Notes: generated from the sequence alone by a model not told the origin. DNA of 64,000 nt from Thermoanaerobaculia bacterium (GCA_044226625.1 JBGAGQ010000016.1:35804-99803); one strand, 5' to 3'; positions 2,572 to 38,675 are shown, counted from the stretch's first letter. A program made the numbers and translations.

Positions 2572-5500
2572 TTAACCGCGTGCCTGCGTGAGTTCGCTGT
2601 CGAGCGCCGCCCTTACGGACTCGATGTGACGCTTGTGCCCTTTCTCGACCCCCCAGTTGAGGATTGCAAGCTGATCATCCATACCTCTCGCTTGGATCGG
2701 CGTAACCCCTCGCTCAAAGACCCGCTTGTACTCCTCGACGACCTCTGCCTTCGAAGCGGCTTTGGCGATCTGCCCCTTGAGTAGAGCTTGAAGAAGGCGA
2801 GCGTCGGCAAGATTGATGGAGCTTTCGAAAACCGGCCGTGAATCGCGCAAGCGAGTCGCGCGATCGATCGTTATCTCGAGCCGCCCGAGCAGGTCTTGAT
2901 GAACCGCGCTATCCTTCGCGAGAGGTTGAAAAGCCAAGAATTGGCATAGGGCGTAATTTACCTCGTAGTAGACCACTTCGGGACGCTGCTTAGCTGCTGC
3001 TAGATAGATGCGGCTCGCAGCCTTCAAGGTTTCTCGGTGATCGTTGATGAACGCCAGCCGCTTGAATGCGCTGGCTTGTCGGGAGTAGCGATCGGCGGTA
3101 TCACCCAGCGATTGCAGCTGTTTCAGTCGCCCAAGGGCATTCTGAATCTTAGCGTTGGCCCATTCTCGGGGAGTTTGTCCGGAAGGCGTCTTTCCGAATC
3201 TGAATCGCTCGAAAGCGTCCTGCACGACGGTCCTGACCCACTGCTCCACCGCCTCGATCTCAACTCCTTCCGAGTCGGTCGCGAAGGCCGCGTCATAGAA
3301 TGCGAGGGCGCGCTCGAAGTCTCCAAGCTCCTGATAGACACGGGCCAGAGAGCTCGCCACCATCGGTCTGTGGAGCCAACCGGGCGGGAGCGTGCGTTCC
3401 AAGCGTTCGAGTCGCTCGCGCACACGTCGGCCACCATCGTTCTGCGGCACGCGCAGGTCGGCTACCAGGTTGTCGAGCGCGTTGCGAGCTTCGCCCGGAT
3501 CCACCCAGTGCGGTGCTTCCGACTGAATTTCCTGCGGCCCTCGAAGAGAATAGTAGGGATCGCCGTAGCACTGATAGGCCCCCCAGGTGTTGACTTCCGA
3601 GTGACAGCGATGGACTTCCTCTCTTGCCTGCAACACTGCATCCCCAAAGCAGGCTCCCCCAAGAAAACTCTGATAGAAGCGGGAAGCAAACGTCTTCGCG
3701 GCCTCGTCGTCCACCTCCCAACCTGCTGCGATCACCGCGCGCACGCCCATCCGGATGAGCTCCACTCCGAGGTTGGCTGCCAGCACAACTCGATCGGGTT
3801 GTGGCAACACCGAGGGCTTTCCTTCGTCCATTCGAGCCAGATGGCAAGCGTTGATGAAAACCAGGTTTGGAACCTCTCGTAGCTGCCGAATCTCTGCTGG
3901 CGTCAACAGAAGAAATGAGGGCTTGCCGTCCTCGTCGCCTTGAACTCCGATGACCAGGCCGCTGCGTTTCGAATTCTTCGGGTCGTGGGTGCCATGACCC
4001 GCGAGATGAACGACTTGATACCCGCGGCCCATAAGATGGCTCAGCAACTCAATGGGATCCGTGCTCTGGACATCGCCGACCTCGAACCGCCCCACAGAGG
4101 CGACATCGTATCCCCGCGATCGTAACGCGAGGCGAACTTCCCGTGCCTCCGCACGCGCTCCTGGAAGGGGAGGCAAGGTTGCGCTCGACGCCGGATCCGC
4201 AATCACGAGCGCGCTCGGGCGATCACAACGCAAGACGTGCTCCCGAAAGTCGTCCGTGACCAACTGACGCACCAAGCCGGTCCGAACCGCGAGCGGAGTT
4301 TGCGTTTGCCCACTTTGCGTGTCGGAGTCGTTGCCGCGGTCCACCAACAGCTCCCAAGGGAATTCCGCAGCGCGGTCATTCAGCTGAAACGCCAACCGCT
4401 GCTGCCCCTGGCTCAACCCTTTGAGCACTTCCGGGAGGAGCAGCTCATGCAGGGTCACGCCGATCGCAGGGTCCACTCTCGAAGAGCTGGTCGGCCGCCG
4501 GATCAAATCGCGAATCAGCTCGACCTGCGTCGCCACCAACTTCCGTTCCACCCGTGCCTTGTCGGTGTGCGCTACATAGCTCAGGGTGCCATCCTGGCTA
4601 TATTGGATCTGCAGCTGACGCCACCAACCACCGCGAGACTCTTCAAAGGCGCGACGACGCCCACCAGCCCAGCGCTGGAAGGGCCAACCTCCCTCGCGAA
4701 TCTCGACGTCTCCCGCGTCTGCCAACTCCCTGACGTGATGCGCCGCCCGCAATGCCCGGTCCTCCCACAACTCGATGACTTCGACTTCTTCGACCAGGGA
4801 AACGCCAGGCTCCGCGAGCTTCTCAAGGACTCGGTTCGCCGCGGTGACTCCTTTGAGGATTCCCCGAAGCGAATCCAGAAGCGTGAGCGTGGAACCCTCC
4901 GTCGAGCCGATCAGGAGGGTGCTGAATCGGCGGCCGATACCCTCGGGGAACGCCGGAGTGCGCCTGCGCTCCTTGAGCGCCATGACATAGCGCAAAACAC
5001 CTCGAGCCACGCCGTCGGCGAGGTCACCGGGCGTGAGCTCGCCGATCCTTCCCAGACCGACGACGATGGCTCCCAAATCCTGGCGCCCATCAGGGAATAT
5101 GACTTCGGCGGTGCCCGCAGCTCCCGGATAGAGCCCCACGGCAAGTCTGCGCCTCAATTCCCCGCCCAATCGACGATCGAGATCGGCCTCTGCCGAAAAT
5201 AGGCCATCGCCTTGGTAATGCCCCACAGCGGTGGCTGCCGTCGCATAGACCACATTCCCGTGGATTACGGAGACCTGCAGCAACCGTCGGTCCGCGCCGA
5301 GGGCTACGGCAGGCTCTGCCCCTAAGATGACCCGCTCGAGCTCTTGCGGCGAAGGGAGCGCGCCGACCGGAACGGCGAGATCCTCCAGGTCCACGCTACG
5401 CGCATTGGCTCGCGATGTGGGAGGTTGACTCGATAAACGCTGGGTGGCGCCGTCACGAAGGAGGTCTGCGTAGGCCTCGCCATCTCCAACCAACAAATCG

Positions 5501-7896
5501 CCGTGCACAGATCGCCGATACCAAGTCGGAACCCCCTGAGGGGGCCCGTCTTTCCACAATGAGCGCCCATCTCCATCGCCTTGCATCACTACCCAAGGCT
5601 GCCCCTTCGGGTCGAACCTTACGCGGTCGGGTGTGCCTTCCGACAGACCGGCGACATAGGTCATGCGGCTCGGGTCGACGGGTGCCGATGCCAGTCGCCG
5701 CCTCACTTCCGCGGCGGCCTTCAAGAGATCCTCCGGCGGGCGAACCCAGCCTACCGTTGCGGCATCCTTTTCCAATCGATCCCAGGCGCCAGGAGAGAAG
5801 AAATCCCATTCCGGGGTAGGTGCCGGTAGTAGCTCGAGTACGCCCGGGAAACGCGAGACGGTCTGAAGAATCTCCGCCATCGAGTGCTTGAGATCCATTC
5901 CCGCGAGCAGACGGATCATCCTGTCCTGACCGAGCAACACTGCGACGATACTCCACGATCCGCTGTTCGGAGTCCCCGCCATCACCAGCCTACAACCCGG
6001 TCGCTTTCGAAACTCCTCCCAAAGCTCAGGCCGCTCGGCGAAGGTCAGCCGAGCGACCAGCCCACCCATCGAGTGCGCCAGGATGCGAACAGGACGCTTG
6101 GAATCCGGGCGAAAGCGATCCGCAAGCGCGACGGCGAAATGCGTGGCGGCCTCCGCAAGTGATCTCCGCCAGTCATAGTCGAAGAGCTGCACGAAGTGGC
6201 TGACCGACAAGAAGTCAGCGATGCCCTGGTAGGCATCATGGAGCAAACCATCGGGCTTGGCAGGCTTCGAGCTGCGCAGGTCCAGCATCGAGAATCCGCC
6301 GAAGAGCAAGTTGTCGTAATCCACCCAAATGCGGTCTCCTCCGACGGAAAGGTGGCTCCCCATGATGCCCGGAAGGATGAAGAGGAAGGGTTTGGAACCG
6401 TCATCGGTCGGCTGTGCGAGCTTCACCGCTGGCGCCCGGCTCACGGCGGGTGCGCCCTCTTCAGCAGGAAAATCCTTACCATCGAGCGCATCGATCAGAC
6501 GCTGTCGGGTGCGGGGGTTGGCAAAGTAGTGGAAGTGATCCACTTCTCCCCCCCGATCTAGATATCGCTCGGTGCGCCCTTGTCTCGGTGCGCCGCCTTC
6601 CATGCCGGCGGTCTGCACGACGAGGTCGTGGTCCTCGCGAAAGAAAAGGTCAGCGGCGAGCACCTTGAGAGTGCCGAAGAAGCCGTGCCCCTGACAGTCA
6701 CCAGCGATCACGCTCAGCCGCCCTTCGACGATCACCTTCTGCCGGTTGAGCATGGCCACCAGGGGCGAGCCGGGCATTTGCGCCGCTAAGCCGGGGAGCT
6801 CATCCGGTCGCGTGCGGCGCTTTGCGAAGGCGAGCAGGGTGGACTTGGCGAAGCTGTATACGGGATTGCCCGCGGTTCCCGTGGCCAGACCAATAACGTT
6901 GAGGACAATTGAGAGCCAACGATCTAGTCGTTCAGAAGCCAGGATGGTCCCACGGGCGGTGGCGGCAACTCGGGCGAACCTCTCGATCTGCCACTTCTGT
7001 CGGCGAAAAATCTCGTTAAGACCCCTGAGTGCCTCCGGATCTCGCTCGCGCCACAAAGGGTCCTTGGCCTCCGTGAAGATGCGCAGATCCGACTCGTCGA
7101 AGGCAGGCAGGCCGTCCACACGCTGTGCGCGGCAGAGGAGTTCCCCTACCAGACCGCCCCTTGAGTGCGAAACCAAGTGAAGCTTCGCGTCCTGCGGCAC
7201 GAATGCGGCGAGCCCTTCGGCGAGCTTTAGAGCGGATTCGACCGGGCTCTCCGACAAGGTTCGATGCTCGAATGCGAGGATCCGCTTTCCGTAGCGTCGT
7301 TTGATCTCGGGCCACGCCGCGCCGCCGGCTCCCGCCTCCAGGGTAAGTTTGCCAAAGGCACCTTCGGTGCTCGACAGGGTGCCATGGACCAGGACCAAAA
7401 TCGGGTCGGTACCGGCCAAGAGTTTTGCCGGCTCGAGCTCGCCCGGTTGTTCGCAGGCATAGAGGCCGTCCCCGGGCTGACGTCGACTTTCCAGCTTCTC
7501 AGCCAGCTCCCGTGCTGCGAGGCCGGCGAGCGAATCGTCGACGCGGAAGACCCGCAACCCGGTCAGGATGAGGCTGCCGAGCCCCCTCTGGGCGCCAACA
7601 CGGATCGGTACCGCCGAGGGAATCAGCAGAGTGCCGGTGCTGTCCCGCACCGGCTGTACTTTGAGCTCGGTGGGGATCTCATCGACTCGCATCCACAGCT
7701 TGACTCCGTCCGCGAACTCCACTTCCACGACGTCGTCGTCGGCGGCTTCCAGACGCAGCTTATCGGCTTGGCCATCTCTGGTAGCGGCGATGCGGACCGC
7801 GTCGAGCGCTTGAGCGCCGATCAGGTCTTGCCAGAGCCCAAGGTCTGGTGGTCGGAGGGCTTCCCTCTGGCCGTTGACTTCGAGAATGCGCTGCAT
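2572..7896 (-). CDS. 1774-aa protein with two alpha/beta-hydrolase (lipase/LCAT-like) domains, a CHAT caspase-like protease domain and a C-terminal TPR-like region
   Basis: Lipase 1: LVHGTLSS, VSHSRGG. Lipase 2: LPGIMGS, LAHSMGG, GDGDG, VHGDL. CHAT dyad: HLAGHG and FINACH, plus FPWELL and WGAYQCYGDP. TPR-like LARVYQELGDFERALAFYDAA. GGAGG upstream. Confidence 0.88.
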   Translation of the reverse strand: MQRILEVNGQREALRPPDLGLWQDLIGAQALDAVRIAATRDGQADKLRLEAADDDVVEVEFADGVKLWMRVDEIPTELKVQPVRDSTGTLLIPSAVPIRVGAQRGLGSLILTGLRVFRVDDSLAGLAARELAEKLESRRQPGDGLYACEQPGELEPAKLLAGTDPILVLVHGTLSSTEGAFGKLTLEAGAGGAAWPEIKRRYGKRILAFEHRTLSESPVESALKLAEGLAAFVPQDAKLHLVSHSRGGLVGELLCRAQRVDGLPAFDESDLRIFTEAKDPLWRERDPEALRGLNEIFRRQKWQIERFARVAATARGTILASERLDRWLSIVLNVIGLATGTAGNPVYSFAKSTLLAFAKRRTRPDELPGLAAQMPGSPLVAMLNRQKVIVEGRLSVIAGDCQGHGFFGTLKVLAADLFFREDHDLVVQTAGMEGGAPRQGRTERYLDRGGEVDHFHYFANPRTRQRLIDALDGKDFPAEEGAPAVSRAPAVKLAQPTDDGSKPFLFILPGIMGSHLSVGGDRIWVDYDNLLFGGFSMLDLRSSKPAKPDGLLHDAYQGIADFLSVSHFVQLFDYDWRRSLAEAATHFAVALADRFRPDSKRPVRILAHSMGGLVARLTFAERPELWEEFRKRPGCRLVMAGTPNSGSWSIVAVLLGQDRMIRLLAGMDLKHSMAEILQTVSRFPGVLELLPAPTPEWDFFSPGAWDRLEKDAATVGWVRPPEDLLKAAAEVRRRLASAPVDPSRMTYVAGLSEGTPDRVRFDPKGQPWVVMQGDGDGRSLWKDGPPQGVPTWYRRSVHGDLLVGDGEAYADLLRDGATQRLSSQPPTSRANARSVDLEDLAVPVGALPSPQELERVILGAEPAVALGADRRLLQVSVIHGNVVYATAATAVGHYQGDGLFSAEADLDRRLGGELRRRLAVGLYPGAAGTAEVIFPDGRQDLGAIVVGLGRIGELTPGDLADGVARGVLRYVMALKERRRTPAFPEGIGRRFSTLLIGSTEGSTLTLLDSLRGILKGVTAANRVLEKLAEPGVSLVEEVEVIELWEDRALRAAHHVRELADAGDVEIREGGWPFQRWAGGRRRAFEESRGGWWRQLQIQYSQDGTLSYVAHTDKARVERKLVATQVELIRDLIRRPTSSSRVDPAIGVTLHELLLPEVLKGLSQGQQRLAFQLNDRAAEFPWELLVDRGNDSDTQSGQTQTPLAVRTGLVRQLVTDDFREHVLRCDRPSALVIADPASSATLPPLPGARAEAREVRLALRSRGYDVASVGRFEVGDVQSTDPIELLSHLMGRGYQVVHLAGHGTHDPKNSKRSGLVIGVQGDEDGKPSFLLLTPAEIRQLREVPNLVFINACHLARMDEGKPSVLPQPDRVVLAANLGVELIRMGVRAVIAAGWEVDDEAAKTFASRFYQSFLGGACFGDAVLQAREEVHRCHSEVNTWGAYQCYGDPYYSLRGPQEIQSEAPHWVDPGEARNALDNLVADLRVPQNDGGRRVRERLERLERTLPPGWLHRPMVASSLARVYQELGDFERALAFYDAAFATDSEGVEIEAVEQWVRTVVQDAFERFRFGKTPSGQTPREWANAKIQNALGRLKQLQSLGDTADRYSRQASAFKRLAFINDHRETLKAASRIYLAAAKQRPEVVYYEVNYALCQFLAFQPLAKDSAVHQDLLGRLEITIDRATRLRDSRPVFESSINLADARLLQALLKGQIAKAASKAEVVEEYKRVFERGVTPIQARGMDDQLAILNWGVEKGHKRHIESVRAALDSELTQARG

Positions 7897-21221: not shown

Positions 21222-22949
21222 TCACGGCGCCGAGGAGAGGCGTCCCATCTCCTCGAGGAGCAACCCCTCGCGCAGGCGCGCCTCCGCGTCGTCGGGGTCG
21301 AGCTCGATCGCCCGGCGGATCGCCGCGAGCGCTCCGGTTCGATCGCCCCGCTCGCGCAACAGCACCGCCTTGTGGCCCCAGAGCACTGGATCGGCGGCGA
21401 AGCGCGCGAGCGCCTCGTCGAGCGTCCTCATCGCTCCGTCGAGGTCTCCCAGGCGCGCCCGCGCGACGACCAGGTTGCGCCAGGCCGGCAAGTAGCCGGG
21501 GTTGCGCGCCACCAGCTCGGCGAGCTCGGCGGCCCCCGCCGCCACCTCGCCTCGCCGCAGCGCGAGCAGGGCGCGACGGAGGCGCGGCAACTGCGCTTGC
21601 GGATCGAGCTCGATCGCGCGCTCGAGCCCCTCGCCCGCGCCCGCGAGGTCGCCCTTCTCCGCAAGGAGGCGGGAGCGCTCGGTCCAGGCCGAAGAGCTGC
21701 CGGGATCGGCGCGGATCGCCGTCTCCCAGAACCTCTCCTCGTCGGCGAAAGGCCGTTGGGCCGCGAGGGTAAGCGCCGCGAAGAGGGCGATCGACGCGCC
21801 CCAGATGGCGACCCGCAACGTGCGTCTCCCCTCTTCGAGCGGCAACAGGAGCGCGAGCAGCCAGCCGAGAGCCAGGCTCGGCAGCAGCAGGTAGCGATCC
21901 ATCACCATCCACTCGGGGTTCACCGCCCAGATCGCGAGGACCGGCGCGATCCAGGCCGCCGCCCAGAGCAGGGGCCGCGCGATCCGTCGACGCCGGCGCG
22001 CGGCGAGGATCGCCAGGACGACGAGCACGACGAGCGCCGCGGTCGAGAGCAGCACCTCCGGCGCGAGCCACGAGCGCGCCGGCCGCGCCGGATGGAGCAA
22101 GAAGAGATCGACCGGCACCAGGAGGTCGCGAAGGTAAGCGACGAGCGCGATCGGCACGCTCGCGAGCGCGAGAGGCAGCGGAGGCGCGGTCGGGAAACGG
22201 TGCGCCACACCGCCGAGCACCTCGGCGCGATAGGCGAGATAGCCCGCCGTGACGAGGGCGAGGACGATCCATTCGGCCCAGGGCCGCCGTGCCGTTTCCC
22301 GGTCTCGCGGCGCGCCGGTCACCGCTTCGAAGCCGGCGAACAGGAGAAGCCCGATCGCCGGCTCTTTGGCGAGCAGGGCGAGCGCGTAGGCGAGAGCGAG
22401 GACCGCCCAGCCGTACGCCGCGGGCCTCTCCCGCTCCACCGAAGCGCGATAGGCGAGGTAGGCGACGAGGCTCGTGACACCGAACAGGAGGTCTTGGAGA
22501 CCCGAGACCCAGGCGGCGCTCTGCGCGTGGGCCGGGTGGAGGGAGAACAGCAGGGAGCCGGCGAGCGCCGAGGCGAGGCCGATCCCTTCCCTGCGCAGCA
22601 GGACGAAGGCGAGGCCGCCGAGCACGGCGTGCAGGGCCACCGCCGCCGCGTGCCAGCCGACCGGCGACGCGCCGAGCAGGCGATGGAGCCCCGCGGCGAG
22701 CACCAGGAAGAGCGGGCGGAGGTAGTTGGTGGTGGGCGCCTCGCTCGTCCGGGCGCGCGGATCGAGGTCGGTGGTGAACAGCTCGGCGACGCTCCGCGGA
22801 GAGCGGACCACCGGATTTTCGATCAGCAGCGGCCGGTCGTCGAAGACGAAGCCGTAGCGCAACGTCGGCAGATAGAGCGCCGCCGGGACGAGCGTCGCGA
22901 CGAGGAGGACGAGCAGCCACGCCCTCCTGGACAGCTCACGCGGCGGCAC
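21222..22949 (-). CDS. GT-C membrane glycosyltransferase with C-terminal TPRs (TMTC-like)
   Basis: GFVFDD luminal motif, YLRPL, LHPAHAQSAAW, LLAKE, DRYLLLPS, about 10 TM segments followed by TPRs. Confidence 0.8.
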   Translation of the reverse strand: MPPRELSRRAWLLVLLVATLVPAALYLPTLRYGFVFDDRPLLIENPVVRSPRSVAELFTTDLDPRARTSEAPTTNYLRPLFLVLAAGLHRLLGASPVGWHAAAVALHAVLGGLAFVLLRREGIGLASALAGSLLFSLHPAHAQSAAWVSGLQDLLFGVTSLVAYLAYRASVERERPAAYGWAVLALAYALALLAKEPAIGLLLFAGFEAVTGAPRDRETARRPWAEWIVLALVTAGYLAYRAEVLGGVAHRFPTAPPLPLALASVPIALVAYLRDLLVPVDLFLLHPARPARSWLAPEVLLSTAALVVLVVLAILAARRRRRIARPLLWAAAWIAPVLAIWAVNPEWMVMDRYLLLPSLALGWLLALLLPLEEGRRTLRVAIWGASIALFAALTLAAQRPFADEERFWETAIRADPGSSSAWTERSRLLAEKGDLAGAGEGLERAIELDPQAQLPRLRRALLALRRGEVAAGAAELAELVARNPGYLPAWRNLVVARARLGDLDGAMRTLDEALARFAADPVLWGHKAVLLRERGDRTGALAAIRRAIELDPDDAEARLREGLLLEEMGRLSSAP

Positions 22950-29635: not shown

Positions 29636-31396
29636 ATGCCCGACTTCAAAGCCCTGGCGTTCGCCCTGCTCACCCTTCCCGTGGCGACGCTCGCCGCCGC
29701 CCAGGGCACGTCGCTCGCCTCGCCCGTGGCCCCGCCGGATTACGACGTGATCCTGCGCGGCGGCACGATCTACGACGGCAGCGGGCACAAGCCCTATACC
29801 GGCGACGTGGCGCTTCGCGGCGACCGGATCGCGAAGGTCGGCGACCTCAAGAAGGCGACGGCGAAGACCGAGATCGACGCGCGCGGCCTCGCCGTCGCCC
29901 CCGGGTTCGTCAACATGCTCTCCTGGGCGACCGAGTCGCTGCTGGTCGACGGCAGGGCACAGAGCGACCTGCGCCAAGGGGTGACGCTCGAGGTGTTCGG
30001 CGAAGGGTGGTCGATGGGGCCGATCAACGACGCGATGCGCAAGGAGATGCTCGACGATCAGGGCGACCTGAAATTCGACATCCCCTGGACCACGCTCGGC
30101 GACTACCTGGACCATCTGGAAAAGAAGGGGATCGCGGAGAACGTCGCCTCGTTCGTCGGCGCGACGACCGTGCGCATCCACGAGATCGGTTACGCCGACC
30201 GGCCTCCGACCGCCGAGGAGCTCGAGCGGATGAAGGCGCTCGTCCGCCAAGGGATGGAAGAGGGGGCCCTCGGGCTCGGATCGTCGCTCATCTATGCCCC
30301 GGCGTTCTACGCCAAGACCGACGAGCTGGTGGCGCTCGCCCAGGTCGCGGGCTCCTACGGCGGGCGCTACATCTCCCACATGCGGAGCGAGGGGAACCGC
30401 CTGCTCGAAGCCGTCGACGAGCTGATGGAGATCTCCCGCCGCGGCAAGCTCCCGGCCGAGATCTACCACTTGAAGGCGGCCGGCCAGGGCAACTGGCCGA
30501 AGATGGATCAGGTGATCCAGAAGGTCGAAGCGGCGCGGAAGGCCGGCCTCGACATCAGCGCCGACATGTACAACTACACGGCGGGCGCCACCGGCCTCGA
30601 CGCCTCGATGCCGCCGTGGGTGCAGGAGGGCGGCTACGAGGCATGGAAGAAGCGGCTCCAGGATCCGGAGATCCGCGCCAAGGTCTTGAAGGAGATGACC
30701 ACCCCGACGGACGCCTGGGAGAACCTCTTCCTCGGCGCCGGGCCGGACGGCATCCTGCTCGCGGGCTTCAAGAACGACGCGCTCAAGCCGCTCACCGGCA
30801 AGACCCTCGCGGCGGTCGCCAAGGAGCGCGGCAAGTCTCCGGAAGAGACGGCGATAGACCTGGTGATCGAGGACGGCAGCCGCGTCGGCACGATCTACTG
30901 CCTGATGTCGGAAGAGAATGTGAAGAAGCAGATCGCCCTCCCCTGGGTCGCGTTCGGCTCGGACGCCGGCGCCCCCTCGGCCGAGGGGGCGTTCTTGAAA
31001 TCGAACGACCACCCGCGCGCCTACGGCAACGTCGCCCGCCTGCTCGGCCGCTACGTCCGCGACGAGAAGGTGATCCCGCTCGAAGAGGCGGTCCGCAAGC
31101 TCACCTCGCTTCCCACCGAGCGGCTGAAGATCCGCGAGCGCGGGCGCTTGAAGGAGGGCTACTTCGCCGACCTCGCGGTGTTCGACCCGAAGAGCGTCGC
31201 CGACCACGCGACCTACGACAAGCCGCACCAATACGCGACCGGCATGAAGCAGGTCTTCGTCAACGGCGTCCACGTGCTCAAGGACGGCGAGCCGACGGGC
31301 GCCGCCGCCGGCCGCGTCGTCCGCGGGCCCGGCTGGACCGGCTGGAAGGCGCAAACCGACAAGGACGCCGCGAAGGCCGGAAAGGGAGGTCGATGA
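29636..31396 (+). CDS. N-acyl-D-amino-acid deacylase (D-aminoacylase)
   Basis: GGTIYDGSG, APGFVNMLSW, YISHMRSEG, GSDA, HPRAYG. Confidence 0.9.
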   Translation: MPDFKALAFALLTLPVATLAAAQGTSLASPVAPPDYDVILRGGTIYDGSGHKPYTGDVALRGDRIAKVGDLKKATAKTEIDARGLAVAPGFVNMLSWATESLLVDGRAQSDLRQGVTLEVFGEGWSMGPINDAMRKEMLDDQGDLKFDIPWTTLGDYLDHLEKKGIAENVASFVGATTVRIHEIGYADRPPTAEELERMKALVRQGMEEGALGLGSSLIYAPAFYAKTDELVALAQVAGSYGGRYISHMRSEGNRLLEAVDELMEISRRGKLPAEIYHLKAAGQGNWPKMDQVIQKVEAARKAGLDISADMYNYTAGATGLDASMPPWVQEGGYEAWKKRLQDPEIRAKVLKEMTTPTDAWENLFLGAGPDGILLAGFKNDALKPLTGKTLAAVAKERGKSPEETAIDLVIEDGSRVGTIYCLMSEENVKKQIALPWVAFGSDAGAPSAEGAFLKSNDHPRAYGNVARLLGRYVRDEKVIPLEEAVRKLTSLPTERLKIRERGRLKEGYFADLAVFDPKSVADHATYDKPHQYATGMKQVFVNGVHVLKDGEPTGAAAGRVVRGPGWTGWKAQTDKDAAKAGKGGR

Positions 31397-32049
31397 CCGA
31401 GCTGGAATCGCTCTACCGCCATCGCTTCGGCGACGCCGACCGGGAGCGGAAAGATCAGCTCTGGGGGGTCCTCTGCCGGCGATTCCTCCAGCCGCGGATC
31501 GGCGAGGGCAAGACCGTCCTCGACCTCGCCTGCGGCCTCGGCGAGTTCTCGCGCCACGTCCGCGCGGCGAAGAAGTACGCGCTCGACTTGAACCCCGGAG
31601 CCGCCGCCCACCTGCCGCCGGACGTCGAGTTCCACGCCGCCTCGGCCGACCGTCTCGACTTCCTCGCCGACGACAGCGTCGACGCGGTCTTCACCAGCAA
31701 CTTCCTCGAGCACCTGCCGGACAAGGCGACGGTCGACCGCGTCCTCCACGAGATCCGCCGCGTCCTCCGCCCCGGTGGCCGATTCCTCGCGATCCAGCCG
31801 AACATCCGCTTCGCCTACGCCGAGTACTGGGATTTCTGGGATCACTACACCGCGCTCTCCGACCGCTCCGCGACCGAGGCGCTGCTGCTCGCGGGCTTTT
31901 CGATCGACGAAATGATCCCCCGCTTCCTCCCCTTCACCACGAAGACCGCGCTCCCCACCCACCCGGCGCTCCTCGACCTGTACCTACGCCTGCCGTTCGC
32001 TTGGCCGCTGTTCGGAAAGCAGTTCTTCGTCGCGGCGCGGAAAGGCTGA
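31393..32049 (+). CDS. Class I SAM-dependent methyltransferase
   Basis: GGAGG RBS; VLDLACGLGEF, SNFLEHL, RRVLRPGG. Confidence 0.9.
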   Translation: MTELESLYRHRFGDADRERKDQLWGVLCRRFLQPRIGEGKTVLDLACGLGEFSRHVRAAKKYALDLNPGAAAHLPPDVEFHAASADRLDFLADDSVDAVFTSNFLEHLPDKATVDRVLHEIRRVLRPGGRFLAIQPNIRFAYAEYWDFWDHYTALSDRSATEALLLAGFSIDEMIPRFLPFTTKTALPTHPALLDLYLRLPFAWPLFGKQFFVAARKG

Positions 32050-33559
32050 GGCAGAATTTTGAGCGACCTCGGAAAGGAGTGAGACTCTTTCACGCGAGCA
32101 AACCATGAATAAAAGAAACTCAACAATGGATCTCTGATACTATCCAATTAAATGAAACCGCGAACCTTTGTTGCCTCTTCCTCCGAAGCCCTATCAATCG
32201 CCCATGCGGTACAGAAGAACCTTGGGCATCAGGCTGAAGTTACAGTCTGGGACCAGGACTTCTTCCAGCTGTCCCAGACTTCCGTCCAGGTGTTGGCCTC
32301 TAAAAGTGAGGACTTCGACTTCGGCGTTTTCGTCTTCTCTAGTGATGACCTCGTTCTAATCCGTGGCGAGCAACATCAAGTCGCCCGCGACAACGTCATT
32401 TTTGAATTGGGTCTTTTTATCGGCAGACTCGGCCAATCACGCTGTTTCATACTCGCACCGGGTGGCGAGTCAAATCTCCACCTACCCACCGATCTCCTGG
32501 GCATCGCTCCAGCTACCTATGAGGTCGGGCGCTCAGACGGAAACTGGCAGGCCGCCACCGGGCCTGCCTGCACCGACATCAGGCAAGAGATCCAACGTCA
32601 AGGCCCAAGAAGGTCACCTGCAGAGAGGACAGAAGGCACCATACCCACCAAGCCACCTCTCGATTCACCGAATCGATTGCCAGAGGGTACGGCTTCGGAA
32701 GAAAGTCCTCAGAATAATGTTTCAGAATCAATTGAACCGTGCCTAAGCGCATTCATCGATGGCAGGTTGCCAGAAGCCTTGTCTGAGCTGGACAGTCGAA
32801 TCGAAAACGAAACAGAGGCCGACCAAAAGTTTCGCCTCAATATGTTTCGAGCTTTCCTATCCTTTGAACAATCAGTGATCGAAGGCGACAAAGAATACCG
32901 ATCGCTTGCAACAAAGCATCCGGACAAGCCAGATCCATGGACGATGCTCTCCCGTCGCTTACTCATGAGCGGGTTTCCCGAGGAAGCATTGGCAGTTTCA
33001 ACGGAAGGGCTTGAAGCCTTTCCTGCAGCAACGGAACTCTTTTTCGCAAAGCTAGACGCCCTGGATGTACTTCAGCGCTCAGCAGAAGTCGAAGCGGAGC
33101 TTCTTGAGATCCTGCAAACTCCTGGAAGTGACCACGAAGAATGCTTCCGCCGGCTATTTCAAATCCAGTCACAGAACGGGAAGACCAATGAAGCCCTTGG
33201 AACCCTAGAGCGGGGTCTCGCTAAATTTCCGTTCAGCCTACCCCTCCTAGAAGGGAAGGCCAACCTCCTTTTTCTCGCCTACGATTTCTCCAGAAGCATT
33301 GTCACCTACAAGCAGTTAATTAGCCTTAAGCCAGAGGAGCCCCGCTACCACGCCCTTTTAGGCAATTCTCTTCTAGAATTCCGGCTTTACGGCCTAGCGT
33401 TCGATGCTTATCGCAAGGCAGACACTCTAGCGAACTCCGATCAGGGTTGGATCAGAGCAAATATTGGCAATGTGTTGAACAGACGCGGATTTGTCTTGGC
33501 TCGCAGATCAAGTGGACCGGGGTGGTTGAGTTTCGTGTAACTACCCTGGCTGCTGGCCG

Positions 33560-34546
33560 TCAGGCCGGCACGGCCGCTGGGAGGCTCTGTCCCACTTGGA
33601 GCTTTTCGATCTTCTCCTTAGCGGCTTTGGCCCAGCCCTGCCAGGCCGGAAGCTGAATCGGGGTCCTGCCTTCATAGGCTTCGTGCGGCGTGATCGGATC
33701 GCCACCGGTTTCGGGCACCAGCGCCCAGTGCGGCCGGATGCGGTTGTACCGCTCGCGAAACGCGTCGAGCTTCTCCCGGGCTTCTGGCGGCGAACCGTAG
33801 AGATGCCAGTACACCTCTTCGGCCTTGAGCGTCCGATGGAAGCGTTCGAGCAACCCCAGCTGCTCGGGCGTGCGATATCGGGTCCGTACGTGATCCAAGC
33901 TCGGCGCGATGTGGCCCTGGAAGCGTCGCGACAGGAAGCTCGAACCATTGTCCGTCACCAGGACGGGGCGGCGCACGAGGGGACCGTGAAGCCTCTCGGC
34001 TTCGGCTCGGGCCTTCTCGATGCCAACGATCAACGCTGCAGCATCGAAGCTCGGTGACAAGTGGATCGCGAGCAGGTAGCGACTGAAGTAATCGATGACC
34101 GTGACGGCGTACCACCAGCCGTGGCCCGGAATGTGGACATAGGTCACGTCGGCTTGCCAGAGCTGATTCGGGCCCTCGGGCAGCAGCTCGAAGAGACGCG
34201 CCGCCTGATACAGCTCGGCGTCTCTACGGTGCGGCCGGATGAGCAGGCCGGCGTCTCGGAGAACTCGGTAGACAAAGCGGTTGGTGACGGCCACACCCGC
34301 ACGCCGCAGCACGACGGCAAGGCGTTTGTAGCCCCACCAGGGGAACTGCTCAGCGAAGCTGCGGACCACCGCGAAAAGCTCCGGATCGAGCGGACGAGGC
34401 GCCGGCCCTGGCCGACGTCGGCAAGCCACCGGACGCCGGAAGAAGGACGAACACGCCAGGCCCAGCAGGCACACGACCGACTTGAGTCGACTCCTCGGAT
34501 GAGTTTGAACCGCGGTTCGGATCATCGCGCGCAGCTCTTCGCTCAA
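33560..34546 (-). CDS. IS3 transposase OrfB (DDE integrase core)
   Basis: WWGYKRL, WQADVTY, VTDNGSSF, ERFHRTLKAE, YN..RPH. Confidence 0.93.
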   Translation of the reverse strand: MSEELRAMIRTAVQTHPRSRLKSVVCLLGLACSSFFRRPVACRRRPGPAPRPLDPELFAVVRSFAEQFPWWGYKRLAVVLRRAGVAVTNRFVYRVLRDAGLLIRPHRRDAELYQAARLFELLPEGPNQLWQADVTYVHIPGHGWWYAVTVIDYFSRYLLAIHLSPSFDAAALIVGIEKARAEAERLHGPLVRRPVLVTDNGSSFLSRRFQGHIAPSLDHVRTRYRTPEQLGLLERFHRTLKAEEVYWHLYGSPPEAREKLDAFRERYNRIRPHWALVPETGGDPITPHEAYEGRTPIQLPAWQGWAKAAKEKIEKLQVGQSLPAAVPA

Positions 34547-34851
34547 CGCGACCGGGCCTGAAGTTTTTTTAAAATGTCGTTGGCGATCGACAGCTCCCCG
34601 ATGATCTGGGCGCGCTCGGCAAGCTCGCGCTCCAGCTGGGCGATGCGCCGCTGGTCCACCGAATCGGCCGCGGCATCGGGCTTCGACAAACCGGCCTTGC
34701 CCCCGGCAAGGAAAACGTCGCGCCAGCGGTAGATCGTCACCTCGCTCACTCCATACCGACGCGCCAAGGCCGCCGCCGACTCTTCACGGCGCAACAACGA
34801 CAACACCACCTCCGATCGCTCCTCGATCGACAACCCGCTCTTCTTGGGCAT
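34543..34851 (-). CDS. IS3 transposase OrfA (HTH + leucine zipper)
   Basis: LARRYGVSEVTIYRWR. A7 slippery run (TTA AAA AAA C) at 34563-34572, with OrfB in the -1 frame. Confidence 0.92.
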   Translation of the reverse strand: MPKKSGLSIEERSEVVLSLLRREESAAALARRYGVSEVTIYRWRDVFLAGGKAGLSKPDAAADSVDQRRIAQLERELAERAQIIGELSIANDILKKLQARSR

Positions 34852-35424
34852 CTCGCTTCCTCCCTCGGCCGAAGCCGACATTACCCGAGTCCCAGGATCT
34901 GCGAGCTATACAGATTCTACAACTATGCTCTAGAATTTCTTGAAAGCGCCTTAGCTCTTGAACCCGAAAATGTATACGCTCAAGACAGGAAGCTTTCTGC
35001 TATGAAAAACGCTATTTCGGAGCAGGAGCAACTCGATAGGGCAATCAACCATGGCATTCAACCGAAAATTAGAGATACAGATGAGATCTGATAGTGCCCT
35101 ATTTTGTTGTAATTAATCCTTGAGCCTAGTGCCCGTTATCCAAACTCCTGGCGCAAGAACTTGTAGCGCCTCCAGTGGCAGGATCGACTAAATTCCGCAC
35201 CAAGTTCTGGAATACTCCGCCTCCGTGACTTCGGCGGATCCACAAGGCCACAGGATCGTTAGCGGGCCTCATTCAAGGTTATCGGTACGCATAACTCGAA
35301 ATCAAATTATGAGCATACCGGCCGGGCCGAGGCGATCTTCTCAACAGGCCGCGCTCCTCCCCGGGAGGGGCACCCCCCCTGAGACTCGGCGCTGCAGGCA
35401 CACGACGGGAACCGAGGCGCCCTC

Positions 35425-35462
35425 GGAAAACCCCGGGAATCAGGGATCCCAATCCCCGGGGG
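35425..35462 (-). terminator. Rho-independent terminator downstream of the small peptide
   Basis: Minus strand CCCCGGGGATTGGG-ATC-CCTGATTCCCGGGG followed by TTTT. Confidence 0.6.
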
Positions 35463-35472
35463 AAAGACTGGC

Positions 35473-35577
35473 CTACCTCGTCAACAAGTCGATGAGGACA
35501 ACGACATTGGTGACGATGCTGACCACCGCCGAAGCAATGGCCAAGGCCTTCGCAAAATAGCTTCCCCTCTTACGCAC
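35473..35577 (-). CDS. 34-aa hydrophobic peptide MRKRGSYFAKALAIASAVVSIVTNVVVLIDLLTR (type I toxin-like)
   Basis: Below the ORF-track cutoff. GTG 7 nt after AAAGGA; basic N-terminus plus one TM helix; terminator immediately downstream. Confidence 0.6.
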   Translation of the reverse strand: MRKRGSYFAKALAIASAVVSIVTNVVVLIDLLTR

Positions 35578-35857
35578 CTTGAGATCCTTTCTTTGAGGAA
35601 GGGAACTCAGCCCCTATTTCAGGGGCACGTTGGGTGCGTGGTCGCTCATGGCGCACGCAGCCGGTCGGTCTGCTCGCACTCAGATTGCCCGCCGTCTCCT
35701 CGGCGTCTGCCGAGAGCTACCAGGGGTACGAGATGTGAAATTCTAGTCATTTACAGGCGTAATGCAATTCCAAGAGACATGCTGGTGGTTTCCTCTCGTT
35801 CAGGAACGCCAGCTCTGGCGCAGAATTGAAGTCCGATTTCTGAGGGACGAGGTCCAA

Positions 35858-36004
35858 ATCGCCGAGATGATACCCAGCTTCCTCCCTTTCACCACGAAGA
35901 CCGCGACTCCCCACCCACCCGGCGCTCCTCGACCGCCACCTGCGGTTGCCGTACTTCTGGCCGCTCGTCGGGAAGCAGTTCTTCGTCGCGGCGCGAAAAG
36001 TTAA
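35858..36004 (+). repeat. Diverged, frameshifted duplicate of the 3' end of the methyltransferase gene (31903-32049)
   Basis: About 147-bp direct repeat, about 84% identical by hand count, with a 1-bp insertion; encodes ..MIP.FLPFTTKT.. and ..GKQFFVAARK. Confidence 0.9.
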
Positions 36005-36073
36005 GATCCAGCCCGTGAACCGAATCCCTGCCCAACAAGCGAGCCGCCGATTCTCGAAAGGATAGGTCTCGGA

Positions 36074-36397
36074 ATGAGCCCCGTCGAAATGTTCTTCGGA
36101 ATGTCGCTGCTCGTCGTCCCGCTCCTCTTCGCTTCGACGTTCCTCGCCGATCGGTCGTTCCGCCGAGACCTGAGAACACGCCATCCCATGGCCCTGGCCG
36201 CGCTCGATCTTGCCAGGCCGAACGCCCTCCGGAGGACCGACTCTCTCCGGTTCCAGCGCTTTCTTTGGGCCTCCGAATACCGGAAGCTCGAAGACGCCGA
36301 ACTGAACCGACGAGCCGGGTGGCTCAAGGGATTGACGGTGACCTACACCGCATCGTTCTTGCTGGTGCTGATCGTCCTGATGACGCAGGTGCGTTGA
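36074..36397 (+). CDS. Small two-TM membrane protein
   Basis: Hydrophobic N- and C-terminal helices flanking RFQRFLWASEYRKLED. Confidence 0.6.
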   Translation: MSPVEMFFGMSLLVVPLLFASTFLADRSFRRDLRTRHPMALAALDLARPNALRRTDSLRFQRFLWASEYRKLEDAELNRRAGWLKGLTVTYTASFLLVLIVLMTQVR

Positions 36398-36450
36398 GGT
36401 GGCGGATACGGGGTTTCGACGGCAGAAAGCCCGTCTTTAGGAGCCTTCCT

Positions 36451-37581
36451 ATGAGTCGTCGGAATCCCTCCCGGAACGCCTCGGCTGTCGCCTTCGCGCT
36501 CCTCGCCTTCTCCCTGACCGCGGGCTGCCGGTCCACCCGCTTCGTCTGCCCGACGGTCGGAGCTCCTCCCAAGGTCGCCGCGCCCTCCGATTGCCCGCCG
36601 CCGCGCGAGTATCCGTGGAAGAACCTGGTGTTCGAGGGCGGAGGAATCAAGGGGCTCGCTTACGGCGGAGCGCTCGAGGTGCTTGCGCAGCAGGGGATCC
36701 TGTCGAACGTCACGAGCGTCGCCGGGACGTCGGCGGGATCGATCACGGCGATGCTGGTCGCCCTGCGCTACTCGCCGGATCAGGTGCGCGAGCTGCTCAC
36801 GAACCTCGACTTCCGGCAGCTCGAAGACGGCGGCTCGACCGGCGTGTATCGAATCTTCACCCGGTACGGCTTCTTCCGCGGCGATACGTATTTGGAGCTG
36901 ATGCGCTGCCTCGTCAAGGCGAAGACCGGCGACGGGCGCGCGACGTTCCGCGACCTTCACGACAAGGGGTTCCTCGACCTGCGCGTGTTCTCGACCGATC
37001 TGAACCGCGGCAACGTGCGCGAGCTGTCGTACGCGAAGAGCCCAGACTTCGAGGTCGCGCTCGCGGTACGGATGTCGGGATCGTTCCCGCTCTTCTTCGC
37101 CTCGATCGAGGACGAGCGGAAGACCTTCGTCGACGGCGGCGTGGTCCTGAACTACCCGGTGAACGCCTTCGACGTCGACCAGCGGATGAATCCCCAGACG
37201 CTCGGCTTCATCCTGGCGAACACCAGCACTCCCCCGCCGGTGCGGAAGATCGACGACATCCTCACCTACGGCAAGGGGCTGTTCGAGACGCTCCTCTCCG
37301 CCCAAGTCGTGGGCCTCGAGCACGATCCCGCGAACCTCGAACGGACGGTGGTCCTGAACGACCTCGGGATCTCGACGCTCGACTTCAGCCTGACGTCGAA
37401 GCAGAAGCAGGAGCTGATCGACCAAGGAGCGCAGTGCACCTGCAACTACCTGCGCGACTACGCCGCATGGACCGACGCCGGCCGGCATCCGGGCAGGGAG
37501 AAGCTCCTCAACGCCGAGCCCGGCACCGCGTTCGTGGCCGTCCGCCAGACGGGGCATTGCGGCTCGGCGTTTCCGCGGTAG
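36451..37581 (+). CDS. Patatin-like phospholipase, predicted lipoprotein
   Basis: AGGAG RBS; lipobox LTAG-C; GGGIKG, GTSAG, DGG. Confidence 0.88.
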   Translation: MSRRNPSRNASAVAFALLAFSLTAGCRSTRFVCPTVGAPPKVAAPSDCPPPREYPWKNLVFEGGGIKGLAYGGALEVLAQQGILSNVTSVAGTSAGSITAMLVALRYSPDQVRELLTNLDFRQLEDGGSTGVYRIFTRYGFFRGDTYLELMRCLVKAKTGDGRATFRDLHDKGFLDLRVFSTDLNRGNVRELSYAKSPDFEVALAVRMSGSFPLFFASIEDERKTFVDGGVVLNYPVNAFDVDQRMNPQTLGFILANTSTPPPVRKIDDILTYGKGLFETLLSAQVVGLEHDPANLERTVVLNDLGISTLDFSLTSKQKQELIDQGAQCTCNYLRDYAAWTDAGRHPGREKLLNAEPGTAFVAVRQTGHCGSAFPR

Positions 37582-37661: not shown

Positions 37662-38675
37662 ATGGCACTTGAAAGCGATCTCGAAATGCGGATCTCGGCA
37701 GCGGTCACTAAGTATGCCGCGGCCGCCAACGCAGGCAGACCCGAGAGCATCTCGGAGTTGGCCGAAATCACCTCCTCTCTTCCGATAAGGAACATGGAAG
37801 CTTGGGAGTTGGTCGTTCGGGGAGGGATCGATCGCGCATCGGAGCCCCCCCGCTGGCGTGTTGGATTCAAACCCAAACCGATCGTGACCTGGCTCGACCT
37901 CTGCAGCCGCGACGGGTTCGACCGCGAGTTGGCGTTACGTAGTCTTTCGAGCGCAGCGCCCAATCGATTCTTCCTGGCGATCGCGGTTCGCCGCCTCAAC
38001 GATTGGGTGCCTCAAATTCGAGCCGCCGCCCGAAAGCGCCTTCTGTCGATCGCGATCGCCTCGAACCCCGAGGACGTCGTCGACGTCCTGTGGGCAATCC
38101 TGCCGCATTGGCAGACCTGGACAAGGAACGAACCCGAGACGAGGCAGACGCTCCTGGAGATCGTCGCGCTCAACTCGGTCGCCCATGGGCTCAAGGTTCG
38201 GATCTCGTCCGCCTCCGCGGGCCCCGCGGCGAGGATTTTCACGCAAGCGGCTCGAACCCCTGCCCTGGATCGGCACCTCGTTCAGATCACCGAAGAGGCC
38301 GAGCAACCCTCGGTCCGGGCGAAAGCCTTTAGATTTCTTCTCGAAGGAAAGGCCGTCTGGGTCGCCCATCGAGATCGGATCCTCGTCGCGGGATTCTCGA
38401 TGCCAATTCTCGAGAGTCGAGACCTTACGGTGGAAGTCGATTTCGAACGCACCCTGGTCGCGGCTTCGGAGGACCCCTCGCCAGCCGTGCGACGGATTGC
38501 CGCAGACATGCTTTGTCGACCAGACGTAAGAGCCCCTCGGCACGTCCTCGTCCAGCTGGCTACAAAGCTCGCGTTAGACCGCTTCCCCTCGGTTGCCGAT
38601 CGCGCCAAGTTCGCTCTGCGTGAGCTCTCCGAAGCCTCTTCGGAACCGATACCCGCGCGACTTCGAAGGGGTTAG
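37662..38675 (+). CDS. Hypothetical HEAT/ARM-repeat-like protein
   Basis: DGFDRELAL, RRLNDWVPQIRAAA, EDPSPAVRRIAA, DRFPSVADRA repeats. Confidence 0.65.
   Translation: MALESDLEMRISAAVTKYAAAANAGRPESISELAEITSSLPIRNMEAWELVVRGGIDRASEPPRWRVGFKPKPIVTWLDLCSRDGFDRELALRSLSSAAPNRFFLAIAVRRLNDWVPQIRAAARKRLLSIAIASNPEDVVDVLWAILPHWQTWTRNEPETRQTLLEIVALNSVAHGLKVRISSASAGPAARIFTQAARTPALDRHLVQITEEAEQPSVRAKAFRFLLEGKAVWVAHRDRILVAGFSMPILESRDLTVEVDFERTLVAASEDPSPAVRRIAADMLCRPDVRAPRHVLVQLATKLALDRFPSVADRAKFALRELSEASSEPIPARLRRG

Follow-up and report, generated by a model that had tools for sequence, protein, structure and literature searches.

A 64,000-nt stretch of DNA from a Thermoanaerobaculia bacterium (GCA_044226625.1, JBGAGQ010000016.1:35804-99803), referred to here as the window and numbered from its first base, carries at positions 32152-35091 of the plus strand a gene that joins an N-terminal TIR domain to a series of tetratricopeptide repeats (TPRs) and that is split by an IS3-type insertion sequence (IS). 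We consider it fairly probable that this is an IS-inactivated copy of a widespread, mobile family of single-gene TIR NADase sensor-effectors, for which we infer an anti-phage function. A sequence-only reading of the window had already proposed a candidate one-gene anti-phage sensor-effector, in which the TPRs would bind a phage ligand directly and oligomerise the TIR. The underlying observation is confirmed; the interpretation is reasonable yet unproven, and it is partly supported by the present analysis: the TIR-TPR architecture and the lack of a partner gene speak for it, but the copy at hand is IS-disrupted and probably dead, and NADase activity, phage protection and binding of a ligand by the TPRs are matters of inference. 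Nor does the earlier reading put emphasis on the break in the gene, which falls within the most conserved segment of its C-terminal part.

An interrupted TIR-TPR gene

Once the IS is read out, the gene encodes 504 amino acids (aa). The IS-free open reading frame (ORF) that had been anticipated could be reconstructed by deleting 33492-34916, that is, the IS plus one copy of its GATT target duplication, which leaves a frame without internal stop that terminates at a TGA (35089-35091). The IS itself, the ends of which could be read at the junctions, occupies 33492-34912 (minus strand, 1421 bp) and is bordered by a 4-bp direct duplication, GATT, at 33488-33491 on the left and 34913-34916 on the right. 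Hallmarks of the IS3 family are two overlapping ORFs, one with a helix-turn-helix (HTH) and one with an rve/DDE domain, TG/CA ends with imperfect inverted repeats, a short target duplication and a length of about 1.4 kb. Judged by these traits the element shows nothing out of the ordinary: according to Pfam, an HTH protein of the HTH_28/HTH_Tnp_1 type is encoded by orfA (34543-34881, 112 aa) and a DDE transposase with an rve integrase core, rve_3 and HTH_21 by orfB (33560-34546, 328 aa), the two genes overlapping on the minus strand, and the imperfect terminal inverted repeats (TGTCTTGGCTCGCAGATC and, reverse-complemented, TGTATAGCTCGCAGATC) begin with TG and end with CA, next to the short target duplication. 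A single full copy of the IS is present in the genome assembly.

The insertion is not an assembly artefact, because contigs of the probable source run, X1, cross both IS junctions with zero mismatches. No contig joining 33491 to 34917, as would be expected for an IS-free allele, was found in four read runs, which does not show the absence of such an allele since contigs drop rare variants. In the one RNA run only the IS was covered (33841-34910) and the TIR-TPR reading frame not at all, a result that likewise does not show absence. Metatranscriptome contigs from run X3, which belongs to another study, match the IS only, at 33841-34910 and with 2-3 differences apiece; a near-identical IS is present in another community and is possibly transcribed there.

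Alignment with intact homologues places the insertion in codon 447, between ...NIGNVLNRRGF and YNYALEFLE..., inside a conserved C-terminal block. The 5' part of the gene (32152-33491, plus strand), delimited from the ORF list, the junction and a frame check, contains codons 1-446 and the first two bases of codon 447; it corresponds to a 462-aa ORF at 32152-33540 (plus strand), the last 15 residues of which derive from IS DNA. The 3' part (34917-35091, plus strand), read from the sequence and the alignment, begins with the final base of codon 447, continues through codons 448-504 to the TGA, and covers the end of the last TPR and a long C-terminal helix. The IS thus removes residues 447-504 and puts 15 unrelated residues in their place, the loss including part of a predicted interface as well as a Y467/R471 motif; in the numbering of the closest full-length homologue, P0002, everything from about residue 449 onward is taken away. 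In addition, the copy in the window deviates from the family at two near-invariant positions: codon 36 (32257-32259), in a TVWDQG motif, specifies Asp where 96% of the family have Gly (G36D), and codon 197 (32740-32742), in the first TPR helix, specifies Cys where 97% have Trp (W197C). Both substitutions may be signs of relaxed constraint. Because the IS removes residues 447-504 and two near-invariant sites are substituted besides, the window copy is very likely non-functional. Knock-out by an IS, whether selected for or not, would be an unsurprising fate for a potentially self-toxic NADase.

Domain composition of the protein

The N-terminal domain (residues 5-123; 32164-32520, plus strand) was identified by Pfam as a TIR domain of the PF10137 CAP12-PCTIR_TIR family (E = 6.5e-30). 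The motif RDNVIFELG, to which the sequence-only reading had drawn attention, is indeed kept as residues 79-87 (32386-32412) and aligns to the RDNV.FE.G of PycTIR (8jsj) and of Cap12 (9lmq and 7un8); its Glu85 (codon 32404-32406), which we take to be the catalytic residue, is found in all 295 sequences of the family alignment described below. Assignment to the CAP12/Pycsar class, likewise made in the earlier reading, is borne out by Pfam, PADLOC, NCBIfam and the Protein Data Bank (PDB) alike. The closest sequence matches among solved structures in PDB were PycTIR 8jsj (5.1e-23), Cap12 9lmq (5.6e-21) and Cap12 7un8 (8.8e-18), and those in PADLOC a CBASS TIR effector (4.6e-46) and PycTIR (2.4e-35), both on the TIR part only (residues 1-154), the PycTIR model being matched only at its positions 151-288, which are its own TIR part. 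PADLOC PDC-S35 was matched weakly (8.4e-13) and on the TIR core only, and the NCBIfam equivalog for Cap12 scored 118 bits against a cut-off of 450, at positions 1-126 only.

The TIR domain is followed by a Pro-rich, poorly conserved linker (approximately residues 150-195; 32599-32736, plus strand), visible in the translation, in the conservation profile and in the confidence values of the homologue model, and then by a TPR solenoid, of which the portion upstream of the IS comprises approximately residues 196-446 (32737-33489, plus strand; Pfam TPR_14/16/19, homologue model and Foldseek). TPR_14 (34.2 bits) and TPR_19 (26.1 bits) exceed their cut-offs on residues 260-404, and TPR matches extend over residues 260-428. 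A search with profiles of both families, as had been suggested, therefore finds PF10137 and TPRs in the same protein, and about eight TPRs can be recognised, that is, tandem helical repeats of about 34 residues forming a superhelix. A structure was predicted with AlphaFold2 from a 30-sequence alignment for P0002 (507 aa, 52% identical). The P0002 model (mean predicted local distance difference test, pLDDT, 86.3; predicted template modelling score, pTM, 0.58) shows a TIR fold at residues 1-150, a linker predicted to be disordered at 156-193 (pLDDT <50) and 17 helices at 196-504, ending in a long C-terminal helix, the helices having pLDDT >90; the Pro-rich linker and the roughly 300 aa of TPR-like helices of the earlier description are both recovered in it. 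With Foldseek, the helical part matched 8-repeat consensus TPRs and the TPR superhelix of OGT (E ~1e-9). No ATPase family (AAA/NB-ARC) was matched in the protein in Pfam or PADLOC scans; the gap between TIR and TPRs is taken up in the model by a 40-residue disordered linker only, and there is no room for a signal transduction ATPase with numerous domains (STAND NTPase) because the protein is only 504 aa long.

A large family with a fixed architecture

Homologues are numerous and alike. Scoring of 8000 candidates gave 596 clusters at 90% identity with E<=1e-3, almost all of the matches listed being 480-540 aa long and combining PF10137 with TPR families, and an exhaustive HMMER pass gave 904 representatives at 50% identity with E<=1e-30, a count that takes in TIR-only relatives. 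In two Atlas clusters of 111 and 61 members PF10137 is present in 100% and TPR_14 in 88-92% of the proteins. Among the groups represented by named family members are Vibrio, Aeromonas, Marinobacter, Leptospira, Chryseobacterium, Chryseolinea, Pyrinomonadaceae and Bipolaricaulota. Fused forms of greater length (889-2535 aa) with a TIR were not found, which is weak evidence. As judged from these sequences, this is a large, unnamed family with a fixed single-gene architecture.

The conservation profile was obtained from 295 sequences, namely 294 stored homologues plus the IS-free ORF. To obtain this set, 386 stored proteins had been filtered for length and for the presence of RDN[VIL] and N[IVLM][GA]N; conservation of these two motifs follows from the filter, whereas that of Glu85, N405, W433, Y467 and R471 does not. 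Conservation, expressed as mean top-residue frequency, is high in the TIR (0.63-0.81), drops to 0.16-0.42 in the linker, where column occupancy is low, stays weak over the first five or so TPRs (0.35-0.39), and rises again to 0.56-0.65 over the last three TPRs and the first part of the terminal helix. Near-invariant residues in the C-terminal part are N405, W433, N437, G439, N440, Y467 and R471 in window numbering. At 52 positions conservation is 95% or higher, and the window ORF agrees with the family at 50 of them.

Genomic surroundings of homologues

In a scan of one genome per species 591 relatives were found, the best 80 of which were kept; 18 of these 80 are full length. All-against-all BLASTP of the 129 ORFs within four genes of the 18 full-length loci revealed no conserved partner gene, the only cross-locus similarity being that between two MqsA-like antitoxins, and the earlier view of the gene as a single-gene unit thus holds. 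A defence scan with PADLOC and Pfam covered the 99 ORFs within three genes of the same loci. PADLOC (E<=1e-5) matched six ORFs in five loci, two of which (MotB and ClpB) look like housekeeping genes, and with both resources together defence or mobile-element neighbours were recorded at 8/18 loci: an SNF2 plus Mrr nuclease (L001), an NDT/TIR-like protein (L005), MqsA (L006), a TIR_2 protein (L011), a DUF4145/PD-T7-4 protein (L012), an integrase fragment together with SIR2_2 (L014), RelE/MqsA (L019), and a P2-like prophage of Aeromonas lusitana inside which the gene lies (L020). L006 and L019 count as toxin-antitoxin contexts.

In the Aeromonas prophage, the gpA replication gene lies to one side of the TIR-TPR gene and a portal/terminase ORF to the other; the gene is part of a low-GC patch and adjoins an Ogr/Delta regulator. 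The gpA-gpQ interval is described as an anti-phage hotspot of P2 (Rousset et al., PMC9122126). A 420-aa ORF without family match lies in the same patch, and the portal/terminase ORF (5193-7343 of the locus, 716 aa) joins a terminase large subunit (residues 16-385) to a portal protein (residues 381-710) in one frame, which suggests that the packaging region has been deleted or fused and that the prophage is probably defective. Among viral sequences, relatives were found at 29 IMG/VR loci, seven of them full length; one of these seven is the Aeromonas prophage just described, and within four ORFs of the other six there are an integrase in two cases and a tape-measure gene in one, the rest being PHROG families of unknown function. 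A tblastn search of the 50,697 phage records of INPHARED gave no match. Matching plasmids in PLSDB numbered 33, with a full-length copy on only one, from Leptospira interrogans. Prophages, islands and variable hotspots are frequent carriers of the family.

Predicted dimer and proposed mode of action

Two copies of P0002 (residues 1-500, with alignment) were predicted to fold as a symmetric dimer, with an ipSAE of 0.59 (0.60, 0.55 and 0.59 in separate runs), the highest value among three controls being 0.00. Among proteins solved as pairs of one chain 20 of 30 attain the ipSAE mark, and among those solved as single chains 1 of 23, counts that hold only roughly here because a custom alignment was used for the dimer. 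The runs share at least 97% of their contacts, and the pLDDT of the partner is at least 74. The contacts (375-386, 409-423, 447-452 and 481-496 in P0002 numbering) map to the terminal helix and to those C-terminal TPRs that are conserved, and a homodimer interface is predicted there. Six residues, N407, W435, N439, N442, Y469 and R473 of P0002, are invariant yet lie outside the listed contacts, and these may have a different role, for instance in binding a ligand or docking the TIR.

From these features, a working model can be put together. The TIR, a predicted NAD+ glycohydrolase, would hang by a flexible linker on a solenoid of about eight TPRs, the last three of which, with the C-terminal helix, are predicted to join two chains into a dimer. 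Sensing of a phage-derived ligand, most plausibly a protein, would fall to the N-terminal TPRs, which are poorly conserved, and ligand binding would release or cluster the TIRs into an active assembly, so that, as expected from the characterised members of this TIR class, NAD+ would be degraded and infection aborted; neither a second-messenger cyclase nor a STAND ATPase would take part. Given the homodimer interface predicted for the C-terminal TPRs, the earlier idea that a ligand oligomerises monomers may need revising, perhaps into one in which the ligand rearranges or clusters pre-formed dimers. In the window, the gene would have come in with a low-GC insert of about 4 kb between a methyltransferase and a patatin gene, an IS3-type element would then have interrupted codon 447, which lies in the conserved C-terminal module, and the present locus most likely yields no functional protein.

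A more far-reaching proposal is that the family represents a distinct, STAND-less type of pattern-recognition receptor, in which hypervariable N-terminal TPRs of a pre-formed dimer, kept together by an invariant C-terminal TPR module, capture a multimeric phage protein, the TIRs cluster and NAD+ is destroyed without nucleotide signal or ATPase, an effector of CBASS and Pycsar having been rewired from the sensing of second messengers to direct protein sensing. We regard this as possible, with the balance tilting slightly to the other side.

Arrival of the gene at a variable site

The gene is AT-richer than its flanks, as had been noticed from the sequence: GC content is 0.50-0.56 over 32000-33400 and 0.65-0.70 in the flanks. 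Upstream, about 145 bp from the 3' end of a methyltransferase gene (31393-32049) recur further downstream with 85-90% identity and a 1-base indel, so that a pair of direct repeats encloses the TIR-TPR gene together with its IS and a tail of 766 bp. The left repeat (31903-32044, plus strand; repeat search and Pfam methyltransferase) is 84-86% identical to three congeners; the right one (35858-36000, plus strand; repeat search), apparently a duplicated, frame-shifted methyltransferase remnant at the far edge of the insert, is 78-79% identical to congeners. The left repeat may be the native copy, being closer to the congeners, and the right a decaying remnant. The inserted island proper (32045-35857), delimited by the GC profile and by distance comparison with the congener G001, consists of the gene, the IS and the tail. 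In G001 an orthologous methyltransferase gene (91% protein identity) is followed after 222 bp by an orthologue of the patatin gene, and since the corresponding gap is 4466 bp here, G001 has an empty site. Another congener, G003, has 7.3 kb in the same interval, with a toxin-like RHS-repeat ORF of 1639 aa and a HEAT-repeat ORF, and in a third, G004, synteny differs and a transporter of the MFS type is found. The methyltransferase-patatin interval is thus a variable site in the genus; no integrase is present in it here.

Family-profile matches were absent from all seven congeners examined and full-length matches from all 30 relatives, and among 301 sampled genomes of the phylum 20 match at E<=1e-20, of which only the present one does so across both domains (11 are TIR-only and 8 TPR-only). 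Because of its low GC content, the empty site in G001 and the lack of a two-domain gene in relatives and in the other sampled genomes of the phylum, we take the TIR-TPR gene to be a recent horizontal arrival at this variable site, in a low-GC insert of about 4 kb.

The tail (35092-35857) has an intermediate GC content and contains a 111-aa ORF (35225-35560); no Pfam or PADLOC match was found for this ORF, and the tail neither resembles any of 150 stored loci nor recurs elsewhere in the genome. Rfam gave nothing at E<=0.1 over 31800-36400, and in 31900-35400 the output of promoter and terminator scans did not exceed that for shuffled sequence. An inverted repeat at 35029-35043/35095-35109 was considered as a terminator and rejected on account of its 51-nt loop.

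As stated in the sequence-only reading, no cyclase, STING, SAVED or STAND NTPase is nearby: none was found among the ORFs scanned over approximately 16.6-49.9 kb of the window, and up to about 15 kb away in both directions the scanned ORFs are ordinary genes of metabolism and the envelope. Just outside the island, a patatin-like phospholipase gene (36265-37581; PF01734, 5.2e-32) is followed by a 327-aa ORF (37692-38675) without family match. With counterparts of 80% nucleotide identity in both G001 and G003, the patatin gene looks like core genome rather than island cargo, and its weak PADLOC and CBASS-lipase matches are probably generic patatin similarity. A 1089-nt contig of run X1, at a depth of 6.7 versus 17.6, shares 32013-32050 and then diverges, which may point to another strain living alongside, its methyltransferase gene being followed by an empty site or by other cargo. 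About 9 kb upstream, at 21222-22949 (minus strand), an unrelated 575-aa TPR protein is encoded with high GC at third codon positions; it appears to be native and unlinked to the TIR-TPR gene. Elsewhere in the genome two further PF10137 proteins occur with different partner domains, one of 332 aa with a C-terminal TIR (L085; contig C81, ORF 943-1941), matched by PADLOC PDC-S35 at 3e-59, and one of 324 aa with an N-terminal TIR and a C-terminal half of about 180 aa without assignment (L087; contig C9, ORF 1860-886).

Weighing of the interpretations

Several observations weigh against an anti-phage sensor-effector. The copy in the window, being IS-disrupted and carrying substitutions at two near-invariant positions, tells nothing about activity. 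Neither PADLOC 2.0.0 nor NCBIfam holds a full-length model for a TIR-TPR protein, all matches being confined to the TIR; the protein does not coincide with an already named system in these resources, but by the same token the family has not been nominated in them from defence-island statistics. Full-text literature searches found no paper or experiment on a PF10137-TIR-TPR protein, preprint supplements not being covered. The dimer is a prediction, and a constitutive dimer alone gives no account of how the TIR stays off. Finally, the association with defence islands that had been looked for in the neighbourhoods of homologues came out moderate and no better than suggestive: it is seen at 8/18 loci, but the remaining 10/18 have housekeeping-type or unannotated neighbours, and the 8/18 were counted without a matched background and so amount to no measured enrichment.

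Other explanations have to be set beside the one we favour. The protein could be a signal-activated effector acting in trans, its TPRs binding a nucleotide messenger, cyclic ADP-ribose-like (cADPR-like) or cyclic, made by an unlinked TIR protein or cyclase, as proposed for ThsI of Thoeris. The TIR class is otherwise known from the signal-activated Cap12 and PycTIR, a TPR domain is proposed to perceive cADPR in ThsI (10.64898/2025.12.03.692087), and the genome does encode two further PF10137 proteins; however, signal-dependent effectors are normally encoded beside the signal producer, and there is neither a conserved neighbour at the 18 loci nor a cyclase, STING or SAVED gene within about 15 kb here. 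Moreover, the TPR half that would do the sensing is the least conserved (0.35-0.39), unlike a pocket for an invariant small molecule, and we hold this explanation to be quite improbable. Conversely, the TIR might itself produce a messenger derived from ADP-ribose, like ThsB of Thoeris, for an effector encoded elsewhere, the TPRs being the phage sensor. Sensor-plus-TIR proteins are reported to make signals in Thoeris (10.64898/2025.12.03.692087), and TIR_2, NDT-like or SIR2 genes lie nearby at three of the 18 loci (L005, L011 and L014), but these neighbours are not conserved, and the best PADLOC matches of the PF10137 domain (CBASS effector and PycTIR) are to NAD+-depleting effectors and not to ThsB; of all the explanations, production of a signal seems to us the most remote.

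A role outside immunity, for example that of a selfish module for addiction or stress, or of something that regulates the NAD+ or nucleotide pool, riding on mobile elements and with TPRs that bind host proteins, would fit the neutral surroundings at 10/18 loci and the many cellular roles of TPR proteins. It would fit less well with the patchy distribution and foreign GC content, the copies in a prophage hotspot and on viral contigs, the RHS conflict gene at the same variable site of a sister genome and a TIR class tied to abortive infection, and we would give it only a slim chance. It could also be that the family is nothing new, belonging instead to the validated TIR-II system of E. coli, a single-protein anti-phage system of TIR plus TPR in which protection depends on the TIR active site (Nat Commun 2024, PMC11350192). 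The two-domain, single-protein logic is the same, TIR-II is reported as the system of its study with the greatest abundance and the widest spread (PMC11350192), and Vibrio fluvialis, Aeromonas dhakensis and Colwellia sp. are common to the TIR-II sheet and to this family. Against such an identity, none of 18 family accessions is present in the 392-row TIR-II sheet (Supplementary Data 2, PMC11350192), no E. coli protein is among the named matches listed, and blastn of the Aeromonas member against 5,426 complete E. coli genomes gave no match. The search of phage records mentioned above was empty, although TIR-II is reported in Caudoviricetes (PMC11350192); TIR-II variants are often described as having an ATPase (~30%) or as being split into two genes (PMC11350192), whereas no longer fused relative was found here, which is weak evidence; and separate TIR_2+TPR clusters exist in the Atlas, a lead only. 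Membership in TIR-II is in our opinion unlikely, and the relation between the two is probably distant, the comparison having been made by accessions, species, descriptions and database searches with the present family.

If intact members of the family do protect against phages, a compact (~1.5 kb) and very widespread single-gene system would be added, in which an effector domain of the Cap12/PycTIR kind is driven directly by a repeat-protein sensor rather than by a cyclic-nucleotide sensor, and which would offer a simple setting for asking how TIR NADases stay off and switch on. The variable N-terminal TPRs and the invariant C-terminal dimer module suggest a division of labour that can be tested. 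The concept of TIR and TPR in a single protein is already known and validated in the case of TIR-II (PMC11350192). For this genome the significance is more modest: a small foreign island at a variable site, in which a costly-looking gene has been lost to an IS, is ordinary genome dynamics.

Comparison with known systems

With Cap12 of CBASS the family shares the PF10137-class TIR and the RDNV.FE.G motif with its conserved Glu, and hydrolysis of NAD+ after assembly would be expected by analogy. Unlike Cap12, it has neither a STING nor a SAVED sensor, the C-terminal 300 aa being TPRs, and no adjacent CD-NTase cyclase. PycTIR of Pycsar has the TIR class in common, but in the present family there is no cNMP-binding domain, the TIR is at the N-terminus and no PycC cyclase was seen. 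Because it lacks a nucleotide-sensor domain and a neighbouring cyclase and scores far below the equivalog cut-offs, the protein is not Cap12 or PycTIR. The TIR effectors of CBASS and Pycsar are reported to deplete NAD+, leading to abortive infection (PMC9122126). Thoeris differs in that no conserved adjacent effector gene, ThsA or other, was found at the 18 loci. PADLOC PDC-S35 shares a PF10137-type TIR, and differs in domain order and partner domain. A preprint (10.64898/2025.12.03.692087) took PF10137 into its TIR scan. The BcTir/Tpr pair (bioRxiv 10.1101/2023.05.26.542521) was set aside as a different architecture, being described as a glycosidase-TPR enzymatic subunit with a separate TIR protein.

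Closer in layout are the TIR-NLR or Avs-type STAND receptors, which as described combine an N-terminal TIR effector with C-terminal TPRs proposed to be phage sensors and are carried in hotspots of prophages and satellites (Rousset et al. 2022, PMC9122126). In contrast to these, the family has no central STAND NTPase, so that assembly would be ATP-independent, with the predicted TPR dimer in its place. The TIR-II proteins of E. coli are alike in being single polypeptides with TIR and TPRs and no partner; the present family differs in its uniform size of 480-540 aa and in that no ATPase-bearing relative was found. With regard to stand-alone sensing by TIR proteins, SpbK-YonE is described as a single-protein TIR sensor triggered by a phage structural protein (PMC12847820), and TIR-V and TIR-IX of E. 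coli are reported to recognise portal proteins (PMC11350192). In these cases a TIR NADase is likewise coupled to a non-enzymatic recognition domain for stand-alone abortive infection, the recognition domains and the TIR subclass being different, and by analogy they may be regarded as working precedents for the way in which a TIR-TPR protein could sense phages by itself.

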